Of a stretch of DNA of 64,000 bases, positions 12,308-52,425 are shown piece after piece. Where the stretch lies: assembly GCA_016930175.1 (NCBI GenBank), contig JAFGHJ010000013.1:164745-228744 (forward strand). Direction: 5' to 3'. The translations under genes and the position numbers were made by a program. The stretch comes from a candidate division WOR-3 bacterium. GTDB lineage: Bacteria; Hydrothermota; UBA3072. The first letter of the stretch is position 1. Each line of letters begins with the position of its first letter. The notes below the pieces were generated by a model. The model had not been told where the DNA came from and searched no databases. It saw nothing but the letters and a program-made list of their open reading frames with translations.

Positions 12308-12439
12308 GTTTCGGGGATTTTAGAGTACTAAAGTGGGAAATGGCTTTTTTGCTAAAAGCAGTATCTGCCACTTTTGAACCTTTAGAATGTAAAAATTAAA
12401 TATTAAAATGGAAAATGGATTTAAGAAAAAGATTAACTA

Positions 12440-12574
12440 CAGAGAACACAGAGAAATAATTATGTTAAAAAAGAAAAAAACACCGAGAGCACAGAGAGAA
12501 AAAGAAAATAAAAACTCTGTGTGCTCTGTGTTAAAGAAAACTGGGGTGTAGAGGGAAGGGCTCTGTGTTTTTTT
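12440..12574. repeat. word-repeat intergenic element (both arms): cacagag words then ctctgtg words plus a G-rich block, forming a long imperfect inverted repeat followed by a T7 run
   Basis: cagagaacacagag (12440-12454), caccgagagcacagagag (12481-12498), ctctgtgtgctctgtg (12515-12530), ggggtgtagagggaaggg then ctctgtg ttttttt (12561-12574). Arms are reverse complements of each other. Confidence 0.7.
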
Positions 12575-12628
12575 ATTCATTTTGCTTTTTAAATTTTGAT
12601 ATTTTATTTCCTTGGGATATCAAATTAA

Positions 12629-14647
<2,019 letters not shown>

Positions 14648-14648
14648 A

Positions 14649-15441
14649 TTAGCCACGAAGACACTAAGGCACAAAGAGAAAACAATTTATTTAACCACGA
14701 AACAAACGAAATACACTAAATTTTTTGTAATAAGAACTCAACCCATAACCCTGAATTAGCCACGGATTCACACGGATAAACACTGATTTTCATTATTGTT
14801 TTTTGACTCATGGCTCACGACACACGACTCATGACGCAGTTATTCACAGAGAGCACAGAGAAAAAAACATTTTTTGTTGTTTAAAACCCCTCCCCACAAA
14901 CCCAAATTATTCTCACACAAAGACACTAAGCACACAAAGCCCCAACGCACCCCGATTCTTTTTGTTTTTACCCTAAACTCAAAACCCGAAACTTTGTTGA
15001 GCCACAGAGGACACAGAGGAACAAGAACACACAGAGAGCACAGAGCCCACCACACAGACCCATTTATTTTTTGTTTAACCCCACCCCACAGCTCCTAATT
15101 AGCCACGGATTTACACGGATAATCACTGTTATTTTTGTTTTATTTTTGCCGTAAGCCGTGGGCAGTAACCTGAGAGCTGAGTTTAACCACAGAGAGCACC
15201 GAAAAACAACAAAGAGTTTTTATTGTTTATACCCTACCCCTCACAAAAAAAAAGAGGAACAACAAATTGCACAAATAGCACGAATGGATTTTTTGTTTTT
15301 CCCTACTCAACCACACAACTATTTGACGACTCAACTTAGATTCGAAGAATCTACGGTAATTGCCACGGAGGACACAAAGTTTTTTTATTTTTTTTATCAG
15401 AAAGCTGATTTCTTAATATACCGTGTTGGCGGTAATTAACA
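14649..15441. repeat. 793-bp non-coding block densely packed with CA-rich word-repeat elements
   Basis: Starts 2 nt after the ligA stop with TTAGCCACGAAGACACTAAGGCACAAAG. Contains two near-identical about 50-nt copies (14756-14810 and 15099-15148: ttagccacggatt[c/t]acacggataa[a/t]cactg...). Also cacagagagcacagag, ccacagaggacacagag, attctcacacaaagacactaagcacacaaag, C-rich blocks cccctcccc and ccccacccc, and gccgtaagccgtgggcagtaacc. The ORFs called here in the six-frame track are low-complexity His/Thr/Pro-rich artefacts. Confidence 0.8.
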
Positions 15442-16272
15442 TTACTTTATAATAGGCAATTTTATTATTCCATCCTCGACGGAAACATACAGGCTTTTCT
15501 CGTCGAATCCTTTGCCTCCGACAGCTACACCGATTGAAGTCTTCAGCGGTTTTCCGGAGAGATATTTAATGTTCCCGCCGGTATCGATTTTTATTACGTT
15601 ATCGATTGTGCTTGCATATATATTGTTGTTATTGTCCCTGCACAAATAAAACATTTTGGTATTATCGATAAGTACCTCAGGTTTTTCAGAAGTACTATTG
15701 GAGTCTATTTTGAATTTTATTATTCTATTTCCTTCTCTTGCATACAAATTCTCATTATTGTTGTCGATGACTATACTCGTAAGAACAAACGGACCGGTAG
15801 TATCGCTTTTGAAAAAAATATTCTTTTTGCCTTCCGGAGCAATTTTATAAATGACACCTTTTAAATCATCTGCAACATAAATATTTCCGTTGCTATCCAT
15901 CTTCACATCGAAACATAATGAAAATCCGTCTGCAATTGTCTCGGTGTTACCGTCCGGAGAGACTTTCAGAAGTTTATTTCCTACTGTTATAAATATACCG
16001 TTGTTATCGGCGATATAAATTCCAGGACCCATAAAACTTCCTTCAAGAACGGTTATATCAGTAATTTTGCCATCCGGTGTAACTTTCGATAGTGTTCCAT
16101 TACCTGTTGGGGGAGCGGTTATCATATACAGTAAGCCCTTATTGTCAAATGCAATACCGTATGGTCTATTACCCGAAACTTTTAGAAAATAATCCGGTTC
16201 ATCGGAATTAGTAGATGCGCAACTAAATATCAATAAAATAAAAACTATAAAAAAGTTTTTAAATGATTTCAT
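15442..16272 (-). CDS. lipoprotein with NHL/SMP-30-like beta-propeller repeats
   Basis: Signal peptide with a lipobox (LLIFSCAS). Repeated ...NG.IYVAD.../...IYKI... blades typical of NHL-repeat beta-propellers. Confidence 0.6.
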   Translation of the reverse strand: MKSFKNFFIVFILLIFSCASTNSDEPDYFLKVSGNRPYGIAFDNKGLLYMITAPPTGNGTLSKVTPDGKITDITVLEGSFMGPGIYIADNNGIFITVGNKLLKVSPDGNTETIADGFSLCFDVKMDSNGNIYVADDLKGVIYKIAPEGKKNIFFKSDTTGPFVLTSIVIDNNNENLYAREGNRIIKFKIDSNSTSEKPEVLIDNTKMFYLCRDNNNNIYASTIDNVIKIDTGGNIKYLSGKPLKTSIGVAVGGKGFDEKSLYVSVEDGIIKLPIIK

Positions 16273-17439: not shown

Positions 17440-17652
17440 CTTTATTCCTTCTGATATTATTATGTTAAACTATAAACAAAATTTGCCGGAAAGTCAAGAG
17501 ATAATGGGAAGATAGACAAAGGTGTAATGCTTATTTTAACTAAGGAAACTTCCACTGACTTAAAATGGATTGATTTTATAAATTTCCTCCTGATTAAATA
17601 CATGATAATTATTATTGATTATTTCACTTATACTGTCAAGTTTAGAGGATAT

Positions 17653-17689
17653 AAAAAAACCACAAAAACGGGATGTTTTTGTGGTTTTT
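17653..17689. terminator. bidirectional rho-independent terminator
   Basis: A-run, then stem ccacaaaaac (17660-17669), loop gggat, stem gtttttgtgg (17675-17684), then T-run. Lies downstream of the minus-strand gene 17722-18090. Confidence 0.75.
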
Positions 17690-17721
17690 GTAGATTCGAA
17701 TGAATCTAAAGTGGAATTATG

Positions 17722-18175: not shown

Positions 18176-18380
18176 TTTGCCACGAAGGCACTAAGACACA
18201 AAGCCCCACCCGTAACTTACTTTTTTGTTTTTTTTAACCCGAAACTCGAAACACGAAACCCAAAACTTTGTTGAACAATAGAGGTCGCAGAGATTTTATT
18301 GTTTTAACTTTCTAACTTCTCAACCTCCTAACAATTTTTTTTATTTTTAAGCTGTTAGCAGTAAGCCGTAAGCCGATAGC
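18176..18380. repeat. word-repeat intergenic element (CA-rich orientation)
   Basis: tttgccacgaaggcactaagacacaaagccccacccgtaac, cccgaaactcgaaacacgaaacccaaaac, gaggtcgcagag, ctttctaacttctcaacctcctaac, gctgttagcagtaagccgtaagccgatagc. Confidence 0.75.
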
Positions 18381-19494: not shown

Positions 19495-19650
19495 TCACAA
19501 CAGAGAACACAGAGTTAAAACAAACACACAGAGAAAAGAAAAATTTTTGTTGTTTAAAACCGGACCCCCCAGCCCAAAATATTCTCACACAAAGCCACAA
19601 AGAACACAAAGGAAAAAATTTAGTTTTTTAGTAGAACCCTCCCCATCCCC
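19495..19650. repeat. word-repeat intergenic element (CA-rich orientation) ending in a C-rich block that abuts a -35 box
   Basis: cacaacagagaacacagag, cacacagagaaaag, ggaccccccagccc, atattctcacacaaagccacaaagaacacaaagg, ccctccccatcccca. Confidence 0.75.
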
Positions 19651-30044: not shown

Positions 30045-30147
30045 TGGTATAATGTTTTAGCGGAAAGCGGACTGCGGTCAGCGGATAGCTTAATATATTT
30101 GCGTCTTTGAGTGAGAATATTTTTTGGATGGTGGTGGGGCGTTGACA
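30045..30147 (+). promoter_or_regulatory. trkH upstream region with two promoters and a repeat-bearing leader
   Basis: Extended -10 TGgTATAAT (30045-30053). Leader agcggaaagcggactgcggtcagcggatagc (30059-30089). Module tttttggatggtggtggggcgTTGACA (30121-30147) followed by a 17-nt spacer and TATCTT. Confidence 0.5.
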
Positions 30148-37607: not shown

Positions 37608-37792
37608 ATATTAAACTCTAATTTTATTATTATTTCACATAATAAAGATGGGTAGACCCACCTTTATTTGCGCATCCACCCATTTTCTTATGGTAATTTA
37701 CACAAATCTTTACATAATGCAACCCCATATAATTGGAGATTGAATATTGTAAATTGGAAATTTTAAAATTGGTTAAATTTGGGTTTGCATTC

Positions 37793-48586: not shown

Positions 48587-48840
48587 CCACAGAGGGCACA
48601 GAGAAAAAAACGCAGAGCACACAGAGCATTTAAACTGTTGGTCTGTGGGTCGGTTGGTCCGTTGGTCTGTAAAAAACGCACCAACACACTCACGCACCAA
48701 CTATAAAAAATTCTCACACAAAGGTACTAAGACACAAAGTTTATTTTTTATTCCTCTTTTAGTTTTTTTGCTAAATCCTATATCCTAAATCCAAAATCCC
48801 AGTTATTGTCACGAAACACGAAACCCGTAACTCGAAACTT
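48587..48840. repeat. word-repeat intergenic element (CA-rich orientation) in the divergent uvrB / T9SS-cargo promoter region
   Basis: ccacagagggcacagag, cgcagagcacacagagc, ctgttggtctgtgggtcggttggtccgttggtctgt, cgcaccaacacactcacgcaccaac, aaaaaattctcacacaaaggtactaagacacaaag, aaatcctatatcctaaatccaaaatccc, cacgaaacacgaaacccgtaactcgaaac. Confidence 0.75.
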
Positions 48841-49015
48841 TAATTACTAAAGAAAGTACGGGAAAAATATCAGGATAAAGACTCATATATTAATGATCCA
48901 ATAATTTCTGTAGACTTGCGGAAAAGAAACAGCGCATTATATTTTATTTACCAGAAAAAAACTATCTTATAATGCGATATATTTGTTGAAAATCAAAAAA
49001 AGGAGAAGAGATAAA

Positions 49016-51613
49016 ATGCTTGGAAAATCAAAAGAAAATATAGGTCTCTTACTAAAATATATTAAGCATCATTTCAAGAGAACAAAAAACAAGTATACGG
49101 GAATCAAATCAGTATTATTATTCCCCATTATTGGGCTTCTTTCCCTTTTATGGGTAATTATAAGGGTAGCACCAAAGCCCAGCCGATTAAGATATCCCTG
49201 TATGAAGGTTGCAGTACCAACAGCCGCCAGTTTTGTCGCATATATCATCGCGATATTTGCTTCTCTTTTTTCGTTTCGAAAAGCAAAAGAGAATCTGCGC
49301 AAGTCCAGATATTCTCTTGGGATAATACTTCTTTTAATCAGTATAGCAGGCGGGACGTTTTTGATACTGCATACGAACCAATACGCATCCGCACAAACCG
49401 TCAATTTAAAAACTAGAGACCTCGAAGCAAATGACCCCATGGGAGAAGAAAAAGGTATCTTTCCCGGAAGGGTAGTCTGGGTACACGATCCGGACGCAAC
49501 AAATGAAGATTGCGATCCGGGAGACTACGGACATGGATGGTTTCTCAATGAAAATAACAATCAGAGTGTAATAGATGCTATGCTGGATACCGCCGTAAAG
49601 GTAATTTCAGGACAAACCGATATTGCCGCAGCATGGGATACTATTTTCCGATATAACAATAACAACAGAGGTAAAGGTAATGTCGGATACCAGGCAGGCG
49701 AAATAATATTTATAAAAGTCAACAGAACAAGTTCATGGACTGGCAATATCAACTTTCCCTCTTACGACCCTGCTGACAATGGCTACTATGGTGTATCGGA
49801 AACATCACCCCACTTAATATTAGCCCTTTTAAGACATTTGGTAGATAGCGTTGGTGTTGCTGAAGATGACATATATATTGGTGATCCGATGAAGCATCTT
49901 TACTCACACGACTATGACCTCTGGTATGGGGAATATCCCGATATCCATTATCTGGATCATGACAGATCAGACGCAGGAAGAGAGATAGCCGCAGTGGGCG
50001 ATTCTATGATTCACTATTCTGACAGTGGTGCAGTTCTTCGTGCAGACGCTTGGAGCTATCCTCCGTCTGGAGACCCTATTTATGATGATCACTTTTACGC
50101 AATCTTTGAAGATTGCGATTACCTGATAAATGTTCCGACCTTAAAGGGACATGTGAGGGCGGGAGCAACAATGTTTGCCAAGAATCATTTCGGTTCTCAT
50201 ACGCGTGGCGATGCCAGCCATCTTCATATGGGGCTTGTAGATCCGGACGGAAACCCAAACAATGGAATTCCAAGATCTGGTTACGGATTATACAGAGTTC
50301 TGGTGGATTTAATGGGCTGGAAATTAATTAGAGAGAAAAACGTAATCTTCTTAATGGATGCCCTGTGGTCAGCAGGTGCCGAAGTTACTCAACCTACCAA
50401 ATGGAAAAATGCCCCATTCAATGACGACTGGAGTTCCTCGATATTTATTTCCCAGGATAATGTAGCAATCGAGTCCGTTGGTTTCGACTTCCTCCAAACA
50501 GAATATACAAGTGAAAATCACCCTGGCCTTACTTATGTCCAGATGGAAGGAACAGACGACTATTTAGAGCAGGCTGCGGATTCAGCAAACTGGACAGACA
50601 GCATTCCTTTTTACGATCCGGAGGATGACGGAACTCCTATGCCATGGAGCCTTGGCGTACATGAACACTGGAACAACGAAACGGACAGACAATATTCAAG
50701 AAATCTTGGGGGAGACTACGGTATTGAATTGGTGAAAATTTTACCGGAAATTGTTCCAGCTATCACAATCACATCTCCTAATGGAGGTGAGGACTGGTAC
50801 GTAGGGAGTGATTATAATATTACCTGGACATCGAGTAATACCAGCGGCAATGTTCAAATCGAATATTCGACAAACAACGGCAGTTCATGGACAGAGGAAG
50901 TCGCAAGCACAGCGGATGACGGTTCTTATTCATGGACGGTTCCGGATGCCCCTTCGGATAATTGTCTTGTAAGGGTTAGTGATACGGAGGGAACTCCCGC
51001 AGATACGAGTGATGCAGTATTTTCAATTTTGCCTGTCCCGTCGTACATAACAATAACTTCTCCAAACGGAGGTGAGTATTGGTACGTAGACAGTACCTAT
51101 AATATTACCTGGACATCGAGTAATACCAGCGGCAATGTTCAGATCGAATATTCGGTAAATAACGGCAGTTCATGGACAGAAGAAATCGCAAGCACACCTG
51201 ATGACGGTTCTTATTCATGGACGGTTCCCGATACGCCTTCAGATAATTGCCTTGTACGGGTGAGTGATACGGAGGGAAGTCCGTCAGATATCAGTGATGC
51301 GGTATTTTGGATATTGCCTTCTTCGGTTGTTCCTCTTGATGAGTTGAGTGGAGTTTATTCGATGAGCGTGAAAAGAGTAACAGCGGATAAAAACTTCGAA
51401 ATTAGATATACTCTACCCGAGGAAACTACTTTAAGGTTCGGCGTGTATGATATAACCGGAAAAATCATAAGAGAGTTTTCAAAAGAACAAATGCAAGGAT
51501 CCTATTCTGAAAAGATAGATATGCGCGGTGAACCGGCAGGAGTATACTTCGTTAGAATGGAAGCAAATGGGAGAAAGTTTACACAGACGAATAAGGTGCT
51601 ACTTGTTAAATGA
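49016..51613 (+). CDS. secreted protein with a T9SS C-terminal sorting domain and two tandem GPI-anchored-like (Kre9/KNH-type) beta-sandwich modules
   Basis: The start is reset to ATG 49016, preceded by AAAGGAGAAG. N-terminal transmembrane signal anchor. Large central domain of unknown function. Two about 92-aa repeats ITITSPNGGE[D/Y]WYV...ITWTSSNTSGNVQIEYS.NNGSSWTEE.AST.DDGSYSWTVPD.PSDNCLVRVSDTEG. C-terminal Por_Secre_tail (GVYFVRMEANGRKFTQTNKVLLVK). Confidence 0.7.
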   Translation: MLGKSKENIGLLLKYIKHHFKRTKNKYTGIKSVLLFPIIGLLSLLWVIIRVAPKPSRLRYPCMKVAVPTAASFVAYIIAIFASLFSFRKAKENLRKSRYSLGIILLLISIAGGTFLILHTNQYASAQTVNLKTRDLEANDPMGEEKGIFPGRVVWVHDPDATNEDCDPGDYGHGWFLNENNNQSVIDAMLDTAVKVISGQTDIAAAWDTIFRYNNNNRGKGNVGYQAGEIIFIKVNRTSSWTGNINFPSYDPADNGYYGVSETSPHLILALLRHLVDSVGVAEDDIYIGDPMKHLYSHDYDLWYGEYPDIHYLDHDRSDAGREIAAVGDSMIHYSDSGAVLRADAWSYPPSGDPIYDDHFYAIFEDCDYLINVPTLKGHVRAGATMFAKNHFGSHTRGDASHLHMGLVDPDGNPNNGIPRSGYGLYRVLVDLMGWKLIREKNVIFLMDALWSAGAEVTQPTKWKNAPFNDDWSSSIFISQDNVAIESVGFDFLQTEYTSENHPGLTYVQMEGTDDYLEQAADSANWTDSIPFYDPEDDGTPMPWSLGVHEHWNNETDRQYSRNLGGDYGIELVKILPEIVPAITITSPNGGEDWYVGSDYNITWTSSNTSGNVQIEYSTNNGSSWTEEVASTADDGSYSWTVPDAPSDNCLVRVSDTEGTPADTSDAVFSILPVPSYITITSPNGGEYWYVDSTYNITWTSSNTSGNVQIEYSVNNGSSWTEEIASTPDDGSYSWTVPDTPSDNCLVRVSDTEGSPSDISDAVFWILPSSVVPLDELSGVYSMSVKRVTADKNFEIRYTLPEETTLRFGVYDITGKIIREFSKEQMQGSYSEKIDMRGEPAGVYFVRMEANGRKFTQTNKVLLVK
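50758..51318 (+). repeat. recent in-gene tandem duplication (two copies of about 275 nt, roughly 85-90 percent nucleotide identity)
   Basis: Copy 1 is 50758-51033 and copy 2 is 51046-51318, aligned by eye. Long identical runs such as attacctggacatcgagtaataccagcggcaatgttca. Confidence 0.85.
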
Positions 51614-52337: not shown

Positions 52338-52425
52338 AAAATCTCACACAGAGCCACAGGGAACACAGAGAAAAATAATTATTTAAACCACGAAATACAC
52401 TAAACACACGAAACCCTACCACACC
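52338..52425. repeat. word-repeat intergenic element (CA-rich orientation)
   Basis: aaaatctcacacagagccacagggaacacagag, ccacgaaatacactaaacacacgaaaccctaccacacc. Further downstream is ctatttgactattgacaatttgactgtt (52485-52517). Confidence 0.7.

Follow-up and report, generated by a model that had tools for sequence, protein, structure and literature searches.

We report that the spacer downstream of a ligA-like gene in a candidate division WOR-3 bacterium is noncoding modular repeat DNA, the modules of which belong to a family common to loci, species, and phyla. The DNA analyzed is a contiguous stretch of 64,000 nucleotides (nt) (here referred to as the window), and the region studied extends from position 14648 to 15441 (794 nt) between the ligA-like open reading frame (ORF) and the next ORF. 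The explanation that we favor, to which we assign a probability of roughly 0.55, is that the ligA spacer is a cluster of noncoding repeat modules formed by accretion of a non-autonomous repeat in a manner similar to bacterial interspersed mosaic elements (BIMEs), and that its commonest modules, here called arms, are putative protein-recognition arrays.

An earlier note on this DNA, which was made from the letters only, described the spacer as the longest noncoding stretch of the window. On a crude gene map, this is the case because long stop-to-stop ORFs span all other large gaps. The same note dismissed the ORFs predicted in the spacer as artifacts, and we agree: four ORFs of 57-93 amino acids (aa) lie within 14648-15441, their translations are of low complexity and rich in His, Thr, and Arg, and none of them matched a Pfam family even at E ≤ 1. 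Rfam returned no family in the spacer at the gathering threshold or at E ≤ 5, where just two chance-level rows appeared, and a scan for tRNA and tmRNA genes returned nothing. When the window was searched against Rfam together with 16 element-bearing loci, only two tRNAs were recovered, both in flanks.

Repeat content and module architecture of the ligA spacer

The ligA spacer is repetitive beyond what its composition predicts. Short-range recurrence of nontrivial 5-mers covered 0.173 of the region, compared with 0.054 ± 0.025 (maximum, 0.152) in 300 dinucleotide shuffles. Using lenient TRF settings (period of 6-11, ≥2.5 copies), we found that tandem arrays occupy 23.8% of the region, compared with 1.9 ± 2.7% (maximum, 11.8%) in 200 shuffles. 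The same arrays occupy 2.7% of the coding DNA of the window and 23.2% of all its intergenic DNA, i.e., the family makes up approximately one-fourth of the latter. Compared with the rest of the intergenic DNA, the spacer is, therefore, no denser in repeats; it is simply the largest accumulation. Per-locus 5-mer recurrence over 80 unrelated loci was too noisy to tell lineages apart.

By parsing the region, we distinguished four kinds of modules, i.e., arms, T-runs, C-rich blocks, and cassettes of other words. An arm consists of 2-4 tandem CAC-type words (CACRRAG and degenerate variants) and typically starts with TTA(A/G)CCAC or TTCTCACAC. T-runs resemble TTTTTTGTTGTTT, C-rich blocks resemble CCCCTCCCC, and a cassette comprises about five heptamers of another word, e.g., RCTCAYG or GCNGTRR. 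The word modules are tandem series of 2-5 degenerate words, each 7-10 nt long, and the most frequent of them is an arm in which three CAC-type words have the core C-A-C-R-A/G-A-G and a period of 9-10 nt; in the WOR-3 lineage, it usually precedes a T-run and a C-rich block or an other-word cassette. CACGGAG/CACGGAT words are present at 14756-14786, 15099-15128, and 15360-15379, and most of the others are CACAGAG, CACAAAG, CACGAAG, and CACTAAG. By our count, there are 11 arms of CAC-type words, four other-word arrays, and six C-rich blocks; the earlier note had given at least eight word-repeat units, and the C-rich blocks that it mentioned are present at 14887-14903 and 15077-15095. All 11 arms are on the plus strand, and pairing between arms is therefore not possible.

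Because 14639-14900 aligns with 14988-15247 in a self-comparison (62.7% identity over 268 nt; E = 5e-17), the region consists of approximately 2.3 degenerate tandem copies of a composite of ~346 nt. All modules of these copies described below are given for the plus strand. Copy 1 (14649-14996; delimited by the self-alignment) starts with arm A1 (14649-14676), which has the three CAC-type words TTAGCCACGAAG ACACTAAG GCACAAAG and similar copies at 54490-54459 (minus strand), 53903, and 18176. It is followed by arm A2 (14691-14720; TTAACCACGAAA CAAACGAAA TACACTAAA), the unit of which is also present in the spacer between the DAO and MtlR genes of L086 (L numbers denote the loci compared), by the word array B1 (14735-14754; AACTCA ACCCATA ACCCTGA), and by arm A3 (14756-14786), which has CACGGAT words and the unit of which is also present in L103 at 942-962. 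Cassette B2 (14805-14839) has five RCTCAYG-type heptamers. Next to it are arm A4 (14845-14860; CACAGAGAGCACAGAG), an A-run/T-run linker (14861-14886; AAAAAAACATTTTTTGTTGTTTAAAA) that is conserved at 19534-19560 and in L083, and the C-rich block C1 (14887-14903; CCCCTCCCCACAAACCC), with A4 and C1 both belonging to direct-repeat families. Copy 1 ends with arm A5 (14910-14939; TTCTCACACAAAG ACACTAAG CACACAAAG), which has window paralogues at 19581-19611 and 48709-48739, the C-rich block C2 with a T-run (14940-14969), and the word array B3 (14970-14992; ACCCTAA ACTCAAA ACCCGAAAC), which is also found upstream of a CCACAGAG arm at 18236-18266 and in L083 and L085.

Copy 2 (14997-15359) is delimited by the self-alignment and by colinearity with L103. 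It comprises arm A1' (14997-15045; CCACAGAGG ACACAGAGG ... CACAGAGAGCACAGAG), a C-rich block, a T-run, and a second C-rich block (15046-15095; CCCACCACACAGACCC / ATTTATTTTTTGTTT / AACCCCACCCCACAGCTCC), arm A3' (15099-15128), cassette B2' (15148-15181) with five GCNGTRR-type heptamers of a word type also found at 18348-18375 and in L005, arm A4' (15183-15216; TTAACCACAGAGAGCACCGAAAAACAACAAAGAG), a T-run with the C-rich block C1' (15217-15244; both of direct-repeat families), arm A5' with a T-run (15258-15300; AACAACAAAT TGCACAAAT AGCACGAAT), which also has a match in L103, and the C-rich block C2' (15301-15319). B2 and B2' occupy the same position in the composite and consist of different words, while the overall architecture is retained. 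The twins A3 and A3' correspond to what the earlier note described as two near-identical copies of about 50 nt; the pair exists (14756-14785 and 15099-15128, with 2 mismatches in 30), but it is only 30 nt long, and the T-rich tails differ by indels. A terminal partial copy 3 contains arm A1'' and a T-run (15360-15395; TTGCCACGGAGGACACAAAG), and a lone CCACAGAR arm also closes the spacers of L083 and L085.

Copies of the modules elsewhere in the window

Window self-comparison showed that pieces of the spacer recur at distant positions, i.e., 14854-14939 matches 19527-19611 (85% over 86 nt), 14916-15018 matches 18181-18292 (73% over 113 nt), 14654-14720 matches 52347-52413, and, on the minus strand, 15188-15294 and 15205-15289 match 54478-54372 and 21644-21557, respectively. 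Pieces that span several modules keep the module order at other spacers of the window, and the series of A3, cassette, A4, T-run, C-rich block, and A5 is colinear with positions 935-1165 of L103, a contig of another species. The window has 25 double-word matches, almost all of which are intergenic; this amounts to 0.39 per kb, compared with 0.023 per kb in unrelated loci.

Other arrays in the window differ in layout. In the ftsZ-ligA spacer (12470-12535), two CACAGAG-type arms face each other (CACCGAGAGCACAGAGAG ... CTCTGTGTGCTCTGTG) and are followed by a G-rich block; here, the family takes its paired, hairpin-forming form, which the orthologous spacers of L083, L085, L086, and L002 lack. At 48635-48700, an array of 4.5 copies of CTGTTGGT is followed by its approximate complement (CGCACCAAC ACACTCAC GCACCAAC), making up a palindromic word element, the grammar of which (CTGTTGG array, CACCAAC, TCTCACACAAAG arm, and T-run) is also found in L162 and in the ligA spacer of L002. 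Two divergent promoter regions, 30059-30089 and 37731-37790, have arrays a short way upstream of their −35 boxes (TTGACA), with 4.4 copies of AGCGGAC and five to six copies of AATTGGA/AATTGAA, respectively. The public Logan unitigs (L001 and L082) of the source sample, SRR13394437, are identical to the window and start or stop inside arrays at 12577, 14809-14838, and 19606; the repeats therefore fragment short-read assemblies.

The ligA spacer varies by whole units among relatives

The closest labeled relatives of the host are Candidatus Stahlbacteria and WOR-3 metagenome-assembled genomes. We compared the ligA spacer among relatives with 81-89% LigA identity in which the mur/fts-ligA gene order is kept. 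This comparison, which the earlier note had proposed, revealed expansion and contraction by whole units, with spacer lengths of 6 nt in L086, L087, and L005, 108 nt in L002, 193 nt in L083, 197 nt in L085, and 794 nt in the window. In L084, which has a different downstream gene, the spacer is 274 nt. Close relatives have a spacer of only 6 nt, and the one described here is, therefore, dispensable, ordinary filler.

The edges of the spacer bear on how it was filled. Empty sites read ...AAGCGGTAGTTGTTATTACTTTATAAT, and filled sites retain a GCGGTAGTTG... remnant (ancestral GCGGTAG...) at the right edge. When the empty sites of L086 and L005 are set against the right-hand edges of filled ones (window, L083, and L085), positions 15429-15441 (plus strand) of the window would be what is left of the original ligA end and its short spacer (GCGGTAATTAAC vs GCGGTAGTTGTT in empty sites). 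LigA ends in ISKR or ISER in empty sites and in ISKEK, ISETTKT, ISDTKKT, or ISEKKD in filled sites, where the module start TTA(A/G)CCAC often provides the ligA stop codon as TAA or TAG. As judged from the LigA C-termini, the TAG stop codon of the window (14645-14647, plus strand) lies within sequence unlike that of the insert-free relatives. Because the remnant sits at the right edge and the LigA C-termini are altered, we infer that repeat DNA was inserted into the last ligA codons.

The filled spacers are related to one another. The L083 spacer is colinear with 14845-15018 of the window, with 78% identity over 181 nt, a value that may be inflated by the alignment of low-complexity sequence, and the first array of the L085 spacer almost equals 15001-15046, i.e., arm A1'. 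The spacers of L083 and L085 each consist of one composite and a terminal lone arm, and that of the window consists of two composites and a terminal arm. The ftsZ-ligA and DAO-MtlR spacers contain entirely different arrays between species, while their promoter segments are conserved. Word copy number also differs between species: in the CTAAATCC array, L085 carries 4.5 copies and L208 carries 2.5.

The arm family is shared across phyla

To search for the family, we used an exact pattern from arm A5, TCTCACACAAAGNNACNAAGN{1,2}CACAAAG, which has 24 fixed bases. The pattern was present in at least 120 metagenome contigs, the GC contents of which range from 0.33 to 0.69 among the matches listed; as estimated from the length of the pattern, essentially no chance matches are expected. 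Triple CACRRAG arms were also found in loci labeled Terriglobales/Acidobacteriaceae, Desulfobacterales, and "delta proteobacterium." Among the matches listed, an inverted partner is located ≤130 nt downstream of 73 of 144 arms, giving a median element of 89 nt. In the partner arms, which were not constrained by the search, the positions of C-A-C-[A/G]-A-A-G are 84-100% conserved (45-62% A and 32-45% G at the [A/G] position), while the linkers between words vary freely. Because the word core is conserved and the linkers are free, this is the pattern of a repeated recognition site and not that of a stem or of random slippage. Even paired arms covary weakly at the variable position (Watson-Crick pairs, 67% vs 58% expected; n = 12), and the asymmetry of G:T versus A:C, used as a test for an RNA hairpin, is confounded by the arm-finding procedure and has too few unbiased cases (n = 12).

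The family also includes what look like copied elements. Five contigs with unrelated flanks (L122, L136, L184, L188, and L192) share, at 94-99% identity, a composite of ~155 nt that includes an arm pair, and in L151, the loop of one element holds a second element. The divergent spacer at 750-1320 of L157, a metagenome contig that is GC-rich, is filled by a palindromic arm-pair unit of 84 nt in six to seven tandem copies. The repeat family is apparently shared almost word for word by several phyla at GC contents of 33 to 69%. Bacterial intergenic repeats are normally species-specific, and exact conservation of short arrays across distant genomes is unusual; it points to a conserved binding partner or a broad-host mobile element.

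Further observations were made on these metagenome loci. The L157 cluster is a hotspot analogous to the ligA spacer. The ~155-nt composite is laid out as a GCGGGC-GAA-GCCCGC hairpin, AACCCAATTCAA, the arm pair, AACAACTTGTTTTTTATTG, a second hairpin, and CTAA; with CTAAY before it and CTAA at its end, it resembles IS200/IS605-type palindrome-associated elements in layout. No bias toward a type of spacer was seen in the metagenome loci, a result that is unreliable because ORF calls are crude in GC-rich DNA. A putative group II intron beside an arm in L143 had no Rfam support.

Origin of the ligA spacer and alternative explanations

Based on these data, we propose the following for the ligA spacer. 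A composite of modules would have been inserted into the last ligA codons, with the TTA(A/G)CCAC start of a module giving rise to the present stop codon. The locus would then have grown by segmental tandem duplication of ~346 nt, gain and loss of units, and slippage at the level of words. Each arm would be a series of short sites recognized by a DNA-binding protein that acts in trans, i.e., a transposase/recombinase or a nucleoid-type protein, and the family would be kept as non-autonomous, largely selfish DNA that is tolerated between genes only. The copies in the WOR-3 genome would be old and degenerate, and the latest events at the spacer would be local duplications. Local amplification is seen in the ~346-nt segmental duplication and in the unit pair with 28 of 30 identical positions. 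The idea of the earlier note that the spacer is a nursery where the elements are generated is not supported: there is no sign that other copies stem from the spacer, its density equals that of other spacers, and the family is far older and wider than this genome.

Several observations weigh against this proposal. The binding protein is entirely hypothetical, and many words of different types, e.g., CTAACTTC, AGTTAATT, and AGCGGAC, are not covered by one recognition motif. No pair of distant copies within the 64-kb window exceeds 85% identity, and recent mobility in the WOR-3 genome is therefore not demonstrated. At the strain level, nine contigs of one related species differed by 2 single-nucleotide polymorphisms in 5.5 kb and had no array indels, and L086 and L087 were identical. 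Among the matches listed, 739 ORFs from 120 loci included no recurrent protein family or transposase next to the elements. Target-site duplications at element ends were not seen by eye; an unconfirmed candidate is the CTAA found at each end of the ~155-nt composite. Plasmids (7.3 Gb), phage records, and viral contigs gave no match. Finally, identity between the window and L083 is only 55-64% at the 4-fold degenerate sites of three genes (ligA, ftsZ, and ftsA), and the 78% identity of the spacer block, compared with ~60% at synonymous sites, could reflect a host function rather than selfish DNA.

We take the alternatives in the order of the weight that we give them, i.e., a host function, a role at the RNA level, local slippage, and a structured RNA or small protein. 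According to the first, the arrays are binding sites for a nucleoid-associated or global regulator similar to integration host factor (IHF) or HU that organizes or insulates the intergenic DNA 5' of promoters and 3' of genes, and the ligA spacer would be an unusually large insulator between convergent genes. The conservation of the word core across phyla with variable linkers and that of the L083 block relative to 4-fold sites are in agreement with this possibility. Also, the arrays fill the room between stop codons and conserved TTGACA promoters, and the arms in codirectional spacers are nearly unbiased in orientation (~7-8 sense vs 6 antisense), which suits a role at the level of double-stranded DNA. 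IHF/HU binding was proposed by Aklujkar et al. (PMC2700814) for sites in Geobacter metallireducens. While a host function is, thus, compatible with most of the data, it is hard to square with the complete turnover of array content at orthologous spacers between species and with a ligA spacer that is dispensable, being 6 nt in L086 and L005. Moreover, nesting and the nearly identical copies that sit between unrelated flanks resemble the outcome of copying and not of site evolution, the words do not fit the IHF consensus on an informal reading, and binding to the arrays is itself a proposal. We consider a host function of this kind unlikely.

The second alternative is that the spacer acts as RNA, in which case a C-rich, G-poor, and unstructured 3' extension of ligA would be a Rho-loading (Rho utilization [rut]) or 3' untranslated region element with the T-runs as pause or termination points. 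The plus strand of 14648-15441 has a C content of 0.24 and a G content of 0.15 in a genome that overall has more G than C, and the predicted RNA is no more structured than shuffles (z = 0.04 for the plus strand and 0.00 for the minus strand). A scan of 12.2-19.8 kb for promoters and terminators gave counts near the shuffle expectation and predicted no intrinsic terminator 3' of ligA, and the arrays begin right after stop codons. However, arms are found in either orientation relative to flanking genes, including in divergent spacers, without a consistent sense orientation, and arms form inverted pairs in other taxa. In addition, 794 nt far exceeds a rut site while 6 nt suffices in relatives, and the RNA of the convergent gene would be G-rich in the spacer. 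These observations make a role at the RNA level quite improbable.

We give similarly little credit to a purely local origin, i.e., slippage and small tandem duplications in a neutral AT-rich spacer without dispersal or recognition by a protein. Many different words, array copy numbers that vary between species, the different words of B2 and B2' at homologous positions, and a higher-order duplication that is a local event are all expected in this case. Yet, multimodule sequences are common to unlinked loci and other genomes, 24 fixed bases are shared by at least 120 contigs over a GC range of 0.33-0.69, the core is conserved while the linkers are free, and copies that are 94-99% identical have unrelated flanks, so that for the CAC-type arms, a local origin is already contradicted. 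The remaining alternative, that the spacer encodes a structured noncoding RNA, as the earlier note had suggested, or a small-protein gene, is in agreement with its length, with a lack of long ORFs, with its perfect hairpin of 7 bp, and with the conservation of a part of it in L083, but is largely refuted by the z-scores of 0.04 and 0.00, the lack of an Rfam match beyond the two chance-level rows, the low-complexity ORFs without a Pfam match, the direct orientation of all arms, and the absence of the locus in the close relatives L086 and L005, and we regard it as highly improbable.

Individual motifs in the region were also considered as other known elements and rejected. A clustered regularly interspaced short palindromic repeat (CRISPR) array does not fit, as similarity among the repeats is 61-100%, they are irregularly spaced (69-108 nt), and the would-be "spacers" are repeats, too. 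GGA motifs of the CsrA type are not clearly enriched (~10 observed vs ~6 expected in a hand count). A sequence similar to FtsK-orienting polar sequences (KOPS), GGGNAGGG, in the G-rich complement fits some blocks only and in mixed orientation. CACGGATAA matches a DnaA box at 6 of 9 positions, and the general word is different. A tiny minus-strand ORF behind GGGGAGGGG is not conserved in the paralogue.

Other features of the spacer and neighboring genes

The ligA-like ORF spans 12629..14647. The ORF downstream of the spacer (15442..16272, minus strand) is convergent, encodes 276 aa, and has a weak match to a beta-propeller repeat. Two hairpins lie in the right part of the spacer. The perfect 7-bp hairpin TAGATTC-GAA-GAATCTA, which the earlier note had reported, is present, although its true position is 15337-15353, one base off the coordinates given there. 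A small hairpin, ATCAG-AAAG-CTGAT, was read from the sequence at 15396-15409. The former is a second copy of a small motif found 3' of a DUF5684 gene, where a TAGATTC-N-GAATCTA hairpin comes after a hairpin of the classical bidirectional terminator kind, CCACAAAAAC-GGGAT-GTTTTTGTGG (window 17650-17708, with the small hairpin at 17691-17708; L002 13695-13757; L005 2236-2253; and L086 13706-13724). Both hairpins are kept 3' of this gene in relatives.

A block of ~100 nt just 3' of ftsZ (GGGATTTTAGAGTACTAAAGTGGG...AATGTAAAAATTAAATATTAAAATGGAAAAT; window 12314-12420, L083 9730-9835, and L208 3730-3815) is conserved across species with some changes that are apparently compensating, and may correspond to a leader or small RNA that is conserved upstream of ligA. 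In one relative only, the ftsZ-ligA spacer contains a gene for a 119-aa protein with a 23S_rRNA_IVP domain (L084 9618-9977) with word arrays on both sides. In L208 (8801-10022) as well as L209-L212 and L215, a gene for a 525-aa reverse transcriptase (RVT_1) adjoins the MtlR-like gene, and the window has no counterpart there. A 285-nt tandem repeat at 50765-51319 (1.9 copies, 87% identical) lies within an 876-aa ORF (48983..51613) and is probably a duplicated protein domain.

Comparison with known repeat systems

The modules described here share features with several known types of intergenic repeats. [quoted passage not shown] They differ from BOX elements and MITEs in that no target-site duplication was seen by eye and no cognate insertion sequence (IS) was found, the arms are internally repetitive, and the ligA spacer has no inverted arms. 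The short tandemly repeated repetitive (STRR) sequences of cyanobacteria, which Mazel et al. reportedly described in 1990, are said to be tandem heptanucleotide arrays in intergenic DNA of heterocystous cyanobacteria. They are similar in form in that several types of heptamer words make up tandem arrays scattered in the intergenic DNA of one lineage; they differ in phylum and words, their arrays are more regular and longer, and they are not known to have a grammar of arms, T-runs, and C-rich blocks. In the literature on Stahlbacteria/WOR-3 and on STRR sequences, we found no description of the present repeats, and searches with the word strings gave no relevant paper.

Repetitive extragenic palindromic (REP) sequences, their BIME clusters, and the doublets called REPINs of Proteobacteria, which are associated with REP-associated tyrosine transposases (RAYTs), are likewise short, noncoding, confined to spacers, non-autonomous, and variable between strains and species. 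They also form mosaic clusters with other motifs, and they are sites for DNA-binding proteins, as we propose by analogy for the present arms. However, REP sequences are GC-rich imperfect palindromes of 20-40 nt with a GTAG head and are species-specific, whereas the present module is a nonpalindromic tandem triplet of heptads with a folding z-score of ~0, and its word is common to several phyla. Among the matches listed, the ORFs of 120 loci included no RAYT gene near the elements. In a more speculative extension of the analogy, which we consider doubtful, the triple-heptad arms (C-A-C-R-A-A-G ×3) and the other shared words would be the cis half of a phylum-spanning two-part system similar to REP/RAYT. 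A conserved trans-acting protein would recognize the tandem heptads, copy or maintain the modules, and through their clusters organize the intergenic DNA of lineages that are mostly uncultured, among them WOR-3, Acidobacteria, and Desulfobacterota.

The closest similarity is to the "putative global regulator binding sites" of G. metallireducens, which are paired on opposite strands and have 3-5 tandem repeats of 7-9 nt (class 1, GTTGCTYN ×4; class 2, TCTCCGTS[Y] ×3; and class 3, MTYCTGA ×5) (Aklujkar et al. 2009; PMC2700814). IS elements were noted to lie at a constant distance from class 1 sites, and in Geobacter bemidjiensis, "multicopy nucleotide sequences" cluster in spacers (PMC2996986). 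In the searchable literature after 2009, we found no explanation of the Geobacter sites; the family is a poorly known cross-phylum intergenic repeat, and its one record, from 2009, is as a putative regulator site without an explanation. As judged on the published consensus only, class 2 (TCTCCGTS[Y]) is the complement (RSACGGAGA) of CACGGAGA-type words in the ligA spacer. The class 3 words ATTCTGA and CTCCTGA are present verbatim in the relatives L085 and L208. The Geobacter sites and the present arrays are both intergenic and multicopy, with 3-5 tandem words of 7-9 nt and several elements per spacer. They differ in that the Geobacter sites are mostly opposite-strand pairs, whereas the arms of the ligA spacer are all direct and unpaired (pairs are found elsewhere, i.e., at 12470-12535 of the window and for 73 of 144 metagenome arms). 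Also, the arms here are interleaved with T-runs, C-rich blocks, and cassettes within a higher-order repeat of ~346 nt, and the words are more degenerate (CACGAAG, CACTAAG, CACGGAT, and CACAAAT). Because G. metallireducens carries the same word type and is genetically tractable, the question of what these arrays do is experimentally approachable.

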